This document shows positions 5,036 through 5,171 of a DNA stretch of 64,000 nt, piece by piece (within the stretch, counting starts at the first letter, position 1; every line of letters starts with the position of its first letter). Both the position numbers and the translations under genes were made by a program. Source of the DNA: a virus (Duplodnaviria; Heunggongvirae; Uroviricota; Caudoviricetes). The stretch is from IMG/VR virus record IMGVR_UViG_3300035208_001055, positions 56,494 through 120,493 of that record; one strand, given 5' to 3'. Under the pieces are notes generated by a model. It saw only the letters and a program-made list of their open reading frames with translations, did not search any database and had not been told where the DNA came from.

Positions 5036-5171
5036 CACGCCGATAGGACTCGAACCTACAACCTCAAGTTCCTATGATAACCCAAATCCTTCGACCCGAT
5101 GTGCTTTACAAGGGGTAAGTTTTTGGCTTGGGTGATGCTACTCGCGCTCTAGCCAATTGAGCTACGGCGTA
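5036..5171 (-). ncRNA. tRNA-like structured RNA with embedded Y-RNA-like motif (candidate YrlA-like Y RNA)
   Basis: Minus strand: acceptor UACGCCG/CGGCGUG, UA, canonical D-arm GCUC-AAUUGGCUA-GAGC and T-arm GUAGG-UUCGAGU-CCUAU. About 86 nt replaces the anticodon/variable region and includes GGGUCGAAGGAUUUGGGUUAUCAUAGGAACU. Confidence 0.4.

Follow-up and report, generated by a model that had tools for sequence, protein, structure and literature searches.

A predicted Ro60-binding Y RNA with YrlA modules in tRNA order, encoded beside a phage Ro60 gene

What kind of RNA is encoded by an over-long tRNA-like element that lies upstream of a Ro60 gene in a tailed phage? The question is raised by a stretch of 64,000 nucleotides (nt) of IMG/VR virus record IMGVR_UViG_3300035208_001055 (Caudoviricetes; positions 56,494 to 120,493), henceforth referred to as the window. 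The element, referred to as tY for tRNA-ordered Y RNA, occupies window positions 5172-5035 on the minus strand. It heads a cluster of Y RNAs upstream of, and in the same orientation as, the phage Ro60 gene, and it is a member of a large family with covarying helices. Its modules are homologous to those of the YrlA class of Y RNAs, with the gene order circularly permuted into that of a tRNA. With good confidence, tY is interpreted as a phage-encoded Y RNA of the YrlA kind that is predicted to bind Ro60; the processing steps proposed below are held less firmly than this identification. Features of the window are given in window positions and lie on the minus strand.

Anatomy of tY and its relation to YrlA

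The acceptor, D and T arms quoted in an earlier note on this DNA, made from the letters alone, are all present exactly as quoted, on the minus strand. The acceptor strands UACGCCG (5165..5171) and CGGCGUG (5036..5042) form 7/7 pairs and place the 5′ end at 5171 and the 3′ end at 5036. An eighth pair between G-1 (5172) and C73 (5035) extends the terminal helix to 8 base pairs (bp) and the whole element to 5035..5172; C74 is position 5034. U8 and A9 (5164-5163) connect the acceptor 5′ strand to the D arm, GCUC-AAUUGGCUA-GAGC (5146..5162), which contains A14, A15 and G18G19 and is followed by G26. The T arm is GUAGG-UUCGAGU-CCUAU (5043..5059). All letters used in tRNA tertiary contacts are intact, namely U8, A14, the A15:U48 Levitt pair, G18G19 and the T loop UUCGAGU.

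The distance between the D and T arms, put at about 86 nt in the earlier note, is exactly 86 nt (5145-5060). The same note had the anticodon arm replaced by an insert, which holds for the 7-nt loop, whose position is taken by 70 nt; the 5-bp stem and the 5-nt variable loop are kept. The stem equivalent consists of the 5′ strand CGAGU (5140..5144), paired 5/5 with ACUUG (5069-5065). The latter opens the 3′ part of the tRNA-like domain (5043..5069) and is followed by the variable loop AGGUU (5064-5060) and the T arm. The 7-nt linker AGCAUCA joins CGAGU to a closed Ro hairpin (5132-5081), and AUAGGA separates the UUAUC that follows this hairpin (5080-5076) from ACUUG. The modules are thus arranged as acceptor 5′ strand, D arm, closed Ro hairpin, T arm and acceptor 3′ strand. 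As modelled, tY would fold as a tRNA L-shape scaffold comprising the 8-bp acceptor, the D and T arms, the 5-bp anticodon stem and the A15:U48 pair.

The Ro-binding region of YrlA is marked by GNCGAAN0-1G with a bulged C and by YUAY after the 5′ strand of the stem (Chen 2014, PMC4201824). The predicted closed Ro60-binding stem of tY (5081..5132) reads CCCAAG-CC / AAAAAC / UU / ACCC / 15-nt loop / GGGU / bulged C / GA / A / GG-A-UUUGGG. It carries all sequence features of the Ro60-binding stem of Y RNAs: the motif as GUCGAAG (5089..5095), the bulged C (5093), the lower and upper helices, and YUAY as UUAU (5080-5077) within UUAUC (5076..5080), after the stem. Both helices covary in the family. 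The strand order is permuted, with the 3′-strand half of an ordinary Y RNA first and the 5′-strand half second, and a loop closes the hairpin at the site of the RNA termini in ordinary Y RNAs. The 5′-strand-like half is 68% identical over 28 nt to mini Y RNA 4 of the same cluster (family D1), and the word GATAACCC occurs in four copies within the cluster (family D2), one of them in the UUAUC region of tY. The earlier note considered the insert to hold the best Y-like motif copy and the architecture to be exactly that of YrlA. The motif is present, and its rank as the best copy is arguable given its permuted strand order; Rfam Y-type models match the four mini Y RNAs of the cluster and not the insert. 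Likewise, a tRNA-like domain is indeed fused to a predicted Ro60-binding module beside Ro60, in an order that is a circular permutation of YrlA and not exactly YrlA.

Repeats and start-codon contexts were also observed around the 5′ end of tY. A 10-nt exact direct repeat, CGAGUAGCAU (minus strand), is found at 5184-5193, in the 5′ leader, and at 5135-5144, where it constitutes the anticodon-stem 5′ strand and linker; the leader copy could rival CGAGU for pairing with ACUUG. The heptamer GGAGAAC, which precedes the start codons of Ro60 and of a small open reading frame (ORF) of the cluster (4166-4176 and 4604-4614), is also found at 5172-5181, just 5′ of a GUG (5174-5172) whose last G is G-1 of tY. 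A 22-codon ORF from this GUG would extend into the tY RNA. Many relatives of tY with G-1:C73 have an AUG directly 5′ of the acceptor.

The order in YrlA is 5′ Ro strand, V, T arm, closed acceptor-like hairpin, D arm and 3′ Ro strand (Chen 2014, PMC4201824), and YrlA, for which a crystal structure is available, has been likened to a circularly permuted tRNA with a closed acceptor (Wang 2018, bioRxiv 10.1101/312249). Both RNAs have the GNCGAAN0-1G Ro stem, YUAY, D and T arms with the tRNA invariants, covariation of the 15:48 Levitt pair and an acceptor-like helix. Both genes share the strand of Ro60 and lie no more than 4 kb from it, tY being 875 nt upstream of the Ro60 ATG (4159). They differ in topology: YrlA ends in the Ro stem and its acceptor is a closed hairpin, whereas tY ends in the acceptor, which is open and 8 bp long, and its Ro stem is closed. 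These sequence features of YrlA are found in tY, whereas its order, in which T arm, closed acceptor hairpin and D arm follow one another and the ends form the Ro stem, is not.

The permutation was modelled on 20 standard-order YrlAs of other loci, each opened in its acceptor loop and rejoined at its original ends with GAAA. The resulting covariance model, R2, whose training set included no natural tRNA-ordered element, matched tY over its full length with 67.0 bits (E 7e-13), compared with 44.9-53.1 bits for the four real tRNAs of the window. It also found 12/12 other natural viral tRNA-ordered elements (60.8-96.5 bits). A second model, R1, was trained on tY itself and gives it 93 bits. Use of the R1/R2 score as sole criterion was rejected, since junctions of tandem standard YrlAs reach 68 bits; scoring as high as tY, they make the R2 score alone no proof of topology, which was checked separately.

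The topology of tY follows from the pairing of its ends with each other (8/8), from the lack of flanking arms, with no T arm upstream of 5172 and no D arm downstream of 5035, and from the lack of any standard-order arrangement in the window. On the minus strand between 3.5 and 6.5 kb, two T arms and a single canonical D arm are all that is present, which makes a standard-order reading impossible. A scan for the standard order (T arm, hairpin, D arm) returned about 50 arrangements in the fetched loci and 0 in the window. A YrlA covariance model, proposed as a check in the earlier note, came back negative: RF02553 has no match in window 3500-6500 at E<=10. The same model matches the standard-order YrlAs of Cashline, Sparky and Ava3 with 36-42 bits. 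With no closed acceptor hairpin, no flanking T or D arm and no RF02553 match, a standard-order YrlA reading of tY was rejected. In the searchable full-text literature no Y RNA was found whose acceptor is open and whose Ro stem is closed; the 2018 and 2020 Sim-Wolin reviews lay outside that search, and a prior mention is possible.

Relatives of tY beside Ro60 genes

A first structural scan of 57 Ro60 loci from IMG/VR identified over-long tRNA-ordered elements beside Ro60 in ten distinct contigs, and searches with Ro60 added 160 further Ro60 loci, drawn from GTDB (a single genome for each species) and from JGI metagenomes. The family was defined by 7 bp plus a paired -1:73 at the ends, D and T arms on either side of a closed Ro stem that carries GNCG(A/G), a length of 110-170 nt and co-orientation with Ro60; tY has every one of these features. 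A strict scan kept elements in which the acceptor pairs 7/7, D and T arms are present with no further T arm inside, and a closed stem containing G+C leads into C-G-(A/G/C). It returned 118 elements at 86/229 Ro60 loci, with 118/118 on the Ro60 strand and 0 on the opposite strand. These comprised 14 elements at 11/57 loci of viral contigs, 57 elements at 41/80 loci of bacterial genomes and 47 elements at 34/80 loci of metagenome contigs. None (0/12) of the cultured-phage loci sampled (Cashline, Sparky, Ava3, FuzzBuster, BlueNGold, GMA2, Phosso, Limpid, Cece, Daubenski, Genie2 and prophiGD43A-5) passed the strict scan, and their recognisable Y RNAs are all in standard order.

R2 gave 59 full-length matches at the bacterial loci. 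Carriers of the tRNA-ordered form include complete Sorangium genomes, Minicystis rosea, Kofleriaceae and other Myxococcota, Gemmatimonadota, Isosphaeraceae, Brocadia, Fimbriimonadaceae and Planctomycetota, besides phage contigs, while the Actinomycetota and alpha-proteobacterial loci of the same set are mostly in standard order. Many bacterial loci, e.g. those of Sorangium, showed no Y-like RNA beside Ro60 other than the tRNA-ordered element. Models of the standard order found relatively few YrlAs in delta-proteobacteria (Chen 2014, PMC4201824), which the permuted form may explain.

When 13 viral members were aligned to R2, 97.0% of the cells were paired, compared with 38-46% when partners were slid, and 25/31 pairs changed on both sides, a result equalled in 0/500 shuffles. 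The 59 bacterial members behaved alike (97.1% paired, 26/31 pairs changed on both sides, 0/500 shuffles), and slid partners paired in 36-48% over the viral and bacterial alignments. Among the viral members, covariation extends to every one of the 7 acceptor pairs and of the 7 upper Ro-stem pairs, and the lower Ro stem covaries as well. At the Levitt pair 15:48, 7 of the 13 viral members have G:C and 5 have A:U, the window's being A15:U48.

Two types of junction between the tRNA-like domain and the Ro hairpin were recognised. In type A (25 clean cases, e.g. loci L005, L008, L022 and L059), the anticodon stem runs for 2 bp before the Ro hairpin leaves it, and a short hairpin (3 bp, 7-nt loop), which is the V arm of Chen et al., rounds it out to a look-alike of an anticodon arm. 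Within the 7-nt loop, 23/25 cases have U at position 2, 22/25 a purine at position 6 and 22/25 A at position 7. Type B, to which tY belongs (12 clean cases), keeps the full 5-bp anticodon stem and has its loop replaced; compensatory changes in this stem include GUAGU/ACUAC, AAAGU/ACUUU, UCAGA/UCUGA and CGUGC/GCACG. One element of each type is present in tandem at several loci, and both types also occur in standard order, e.g. at L026. An anticodon-like V hairpin was likewise observed in standard YrlAs (noted at L061 2200-2230 and L149 2475-2553).

In tandem standard YrlAs (L058, L026, L001 and L149), the acceptor 3′ strand of one unit pairs in 5-6/7 positions with the next unit's acceptor 5′ strand, so that the array can be read in either register. 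Duplication and truncation of such arrays is a plausible route to circular permutation.

The ends of the RNA were examined in 72 aligned family members and in 383 real tRNAs from the same loci. Positions -1 and 73 are paired in 56/72 members (G:C 23, U:A 16, U:G 12, C:G 3, A:U 2), compared with 44/383 real tRNAs, 14 of these 44 being tRNA-His. In contrast, -2:74 is paired in only 10/72 members. At position -2, U (41/72) is frequent and G (4/72) rare, as at position -1 of real tRNAs. C74 occurs in 61/72 members, and CCA is encoded at 74-76 in 8/72. Exact G-1:C73 is found in tY and in 10/14 of the viral members from the strict scan, and since many bacterial members have U:A or U:G instead, the conserved feature is the eighth pair and not histidine identity. 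In bacterial tRNA-His the RNase P cut leaves an 8-bp stem with G-1. Taken together, the -1:73 pairing, the unpaired -2:74 and the composition of -2 point to an 8-bp acceptor helix and, by analogy with tRNA-His, to a putative RNase P cut one position upstream of the usual one. In vivo, the YrlA of M. smegmatis is cleaved by RNase P and acquires CCA (Chen 2014, PMC4201824).

Proposed mechanism and alternative explanations

In the mechanism proposed, the Y RNA cluster would be transcribed as a precursor that RNase P would cleave between -2 and -1, retaining the 8-bp stem as for tRNA-His, and the 3′ end of tY would be trimmed, possibly with addition of CCA. The closed stem of tY would dock onto the outer face of the phage Ro60 ring, and the tRNA-like domain with its free acceptor ends would be presented as a tRNA mimic to an effector or competitor. 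Candidate partners of this domain are PNPase or another exoribonuclease, an enzyme of tRNA processing, or an anticodon nuclease. Ideas published for YrlA that also apply to tY are the tethering of Ro60 to PNPase or competition with an anticodon nuclease (PMC7790460), and complexes of phage Ro60, Y RNA and PNPase have been reported on (PMC12135203).

Several observations weigh against the identification of tY as a Ro60-binding Y RNA in tRNA order. The R2 margin of tY over the best real tRNA is only 14 bits, and the R2 score of 68 bits noted above belongs to the junction of two tandem standard YrlAs in prophiGD43A-5. The loop closing the Ro stem is 15 nt in tY compared with 4 nt in many relatives, and the upper Ro stem contains a G.U pair and a bulge. 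The fold constrained to a cloverleaf has -40.0 kcal/mol, compared with -47.4 kcal/mol for the minimum free energy fold, in which the T arm is replaced with an alternative, and the z-score of the tY fold is only -2.3. CCA is unencoded at the 3′ end, which reads C-CUU. Finally, the collections searched hold no close relative of the window phage: megablast and blastn against 50,697 phage records returned none, an exact-pattern scan of IMG/VR gave 0 matches, and the best Ro60 identity in IMG/VR, GTDB genomes and JGI metagenomes was 59-61%.

A more specific proposal is doubtful. In it, a tRNA-His-like maturation (G-1 left, CCA added) would be followed by charging by histidyl-tRNA synthetase of the G-1:C73 forms, which include the window's and those of most phage members. 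Joined to it, and as a whole just as doubtful, are the suggestions that Ro60 carries a mimic that is charged or that engages the synthetase or the CCA enzyme, the 8/5 helix avoiding EF-Tu and the ribosome, and that the permuted and standard orders are interconverted via tandem arrays; an alternative within the same proposal would make tY a phage decoy against host tRNA-targeting nucleases.

It is also unlikely, to a similar degree, that tY is mainly a cis-acting processing signal for the Y RNA/Ro60 precursor, the excised piece being a by-product. Such tRNA-like punctuation appears to be used in the cluster, where a second tRNA-like element devoid of the Ro motif abuts mini Y RNAs 2 and 3, and likewise at locus L004. 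However, the Ro stem of tY-type elements is complete and covaries across the 72 aligned members, which would not be expected to persist in a pure processing signal, and the Sorangium and many other bacterial loci showed no other Y-like RNA by Ro60.

An interpretation of tY as a real tRNA gene with a removable intervening sequence is very improbable. The earlier note had predicted that tRNA finders would fail on the element or call an intron, which was borne out. Neither ARAGORN in default mode nor Rfam at gathering thresholds calls tY, and ARAGORN with introns allowed reports "tRNA-Phe(gaa)" with a 45-nt intron. The GAA of this call is taken from the Ro motif GUCGAAG, and the reading is unconserved in relatives. 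In type A relatives, deletion of the insert does leave a perfect 5-bp stem and a 7-nt loop with U33, R37 and A38, but no deletion in tY yields the canonical 7-nt anticodon loop (U33, R37) that characterises tRNAs (RF00005), and position 33 would be C. A group I intron, named in the earlier note as one finding that would speak against its reading, is not in evidence, nor is a bulge-helix-bulge intron: the 70-nt insert is too short for the former and matches no Rfam intron family. No mechanism for excision at such tRNA positions is known in bacteria or phages. Instead, the insert in tY-type elements is a conserved stem of the Ro-binding type and always lies beside Ro60. The intron-bearing tRNA was accordingly rejected, the ARAGORN call being an artefact that uses the Ro motif.

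The topology of tY is covered by no Rfam family. The only match of the tRNA clan to tY is a partial one to tRNA-Sec with 17 bits. The metazoan Y RNA and stem-bulge RNA (sbRNA) models (RF00019 and RF01656), in which the RNA ends form the helix, do not match it, and the ends of tY do not form such a helix. Many other members of the family reach 40-54 bits with RF00005, which takes them for tRNAs carrying a long insert, and annotation pipelines may therefore label some tRNA-ordered Y RNAs as odd tRNAs. In prophiGD43A-5, one standard YrlA is annotated as tRNA-Thr(tgt) because of its V hairpin.

Still less probable is a misread junction of two tandem standard YrlAs, with the D arm of one unit and the T arm of the next. 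Junctions of this kind in L058, L026, L001 and L149 do score 30-68 bits with R1/R2, but in tY the flanking arms and the closed acceptor hairpin that such a junction requires are missing, and its two ends are joined by 8/8 pairs. Least probable of all is that tY is a decayed tRNA pseudogene with an insertion that arose by chance, as the failure of default tRNA finders might suggest. Its tertiary-contact letters are intact and its insert has a specific set of Ro motifs, and the comparative data, with 118 structural relatives beside Ro60 and covariation in every helix, exclude this reading.

As a Y RNA in tRNA order, tY can be set beside several known RNAs. The processed M. smegmatis YrlA resembles it in the shape of its ends, having an RNase P-made 5′ end and a 3′ CCA on a tRNA-like domain together with a Ro stem, as proposed for tY; that RNA consists of two pieces (82 and 65 nt) held by the Ro stem, whereas tY would be one covalent chain. 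Yrn1 of D. radiodurans, a Y RNA that binds Ro, carries tRNA-like D and T features read as D, stem-loop, T, like those of tY (Chen 2014, PMC4201824). In Yrn1 the acceptor is replaced by the Ro stem, and the hairpin between D and T resembles an anticodon arm, whereas tY has a genuine acceptor and its Ro stem is at the anticodon loop. An 8-bp terminal helix is common to tY, tRNA-His (G-1:C73) and bacterial tRNA-Sec (8/5 acceptor/T helix), from which tY differs in having no anticodon loop. Metazoan Y RNAs and nematode sbRNAs have the bulged Ro-binding helix in common with tY, but they have no tRNA-like domain and end in the stem.

Together, YrlA and tY constitute a second natural case, after transfer-messenger RNA (tmRNA) and permuted tRNA genes, of one fold in two circular orders, tandem YrlA arrays being an obvious route between them. 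The two-piece permuted tmRNA is another fold encoded in two gene orders. Permuted tRNA genes occur in Cyanidioschyzon and some archaea (Wang 2018 discussion, bioRxiv 10.1101/312249). As with YrlA and tY, permuted tRNA and tmRNA genes show one functional fold in two gene orders across lineages; there, processing restores the tRNA order, whereas both orders appear to be end products in YrlA and tY, and the permuted partner is a Y RNA.

Bacterial Y RNAs are known as tRNA mimics without a free CCA end. A widespread natural Y RNA with a genuine, open, RNase P-compatible acceptor makes the role of their tRNA-like domain experimentally approachable, and it opens questions of processing, CCA tailing, modification, charging and binding partners. 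Cultured carriers of the tRNA-ordered form exist in Sorangium cellulosum and Minicystis rosea. The family also accounts for odd "tRNA with insert" matches beside Ro60 genes.

The phage Ro60 locus

The window is from a tailed phage with about 51% G+C that encodes a terminase, a portal, a tape-measure protein, tail fibres, a helicase, a primase and a family A DNA polymerase. Its full-length Ro60 (Rsr) orthologue (2513..4159) has 548 amino acids from the ATG at 4159 and was identified by Pfam vWA_Ro60 (1.7e-66) and TROVE (6e-42). Searches of the PDB matched it to human Ro60 (8e-121), Xenopus Ro60 (2.5e-117) and D. radiodurans Rsr (1e-108). On the minus strand the order of the cluster is tY, mini Y RNA 1, mini Y RNA 2, tRNA-like element 2, mini Y RNA 3, a small ORF, mini Y RNA 4 and Ro60.

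Each mini Y RNA is a bulged Y RNA stem alone, 67-72 nt in length, that ends in the stem, and all four match the sbRNA model RF01656 at 21.8-31.8 bits, below its gathering score of 38. Mini Y RNA 1 (4926..4992) scores 31.8 bits and folds with -26.4 kcal/mol (z -3.6). Mini Y RNA 2 (4835..4902) scores 21.8 bits (fold z -2.95) and mini Y RNA 3 (4642..4713) 23.1 bits (fold z -3.6). Mini Y RNA 4 (4221..4292), which is followed by a U run, scores 30.2 bits. A 14-nt exact repeat, AGCGCCGGGCCGAG (minus strand), occurs at 5250-5263, inside the upstream ORF, and at 4279-4292 as the 5′ end of mini Y RNA 4; it may be a remnant of another Y unit. Purine-rich, GAGAGAAC-like spacer repeats (minus strand) lie between RNA modules at 4895-4922 and 4990-5014.

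The over-long tRNA-like element 2 (4714..4833) is matched by the Rfam tRNA model with 32.4 bits (fold z -4.4) and by R2 with only 28.8 bits. Its 7-bp acceptor is extended by U-1:A73, and two extra hairpins stand alongside a class-II-like D arm and a T arm, while the Ro motif is absent from 4714-4833; ARAGORN -i labels the element "tRNA-His(atg) with intron". Its ends abut mini Y RNA 2 and mini Y RNA 3. The closest Ro60 relative, at locus L004 (59% identity), has an agreeing layout of tRNA-ordered Y RNA, tRNA-like element abutting a mini Y RNA, small ORF, mini Y RNA and Ro60, and the counterpart of element 2 there is L004 2295-2369. Having no Ro stem and abutting mini Y RNAs at both loci, element 2 is probably a processing signal that frees the adjacent mini Y RNAs.

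The small ORF between mini Y RNAs 3 and 4 (4294..4602; 102 amino acids) has a GGAG ribosome-binding site. It has no Pfam or PHROG match and no detectable sequence similarity to its positional counterpart at L004 2538-2903, which likewise matches no family.

Directly downstream of Ro60, at 1061-2167 on the minus strand, lies a homologue of ATP-dependent DNA ligases (phrog_114, 2e-24). The RtcB RNA ligase is linked to Ro60 in enteric bacteria, in contrast to the DNA ligase homologue of the window. The downstream ligase was rejected as an RNA-repair partner, since it matches only ATP-dependent DNA ligase families.

Elsewhere in the window, a tRNA-like minihelix was observed at 24977-25055 (minus strand), with an 8-bp acceptor (GGACGCUG/CAGCGUUC) followed by UUUUU. 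It has no D arm and is not called by ARAGORN; its T arm, CCGGG UUCGAGU CCCGG, is perfect, and R1 and R2 score it at 22-24 bits.

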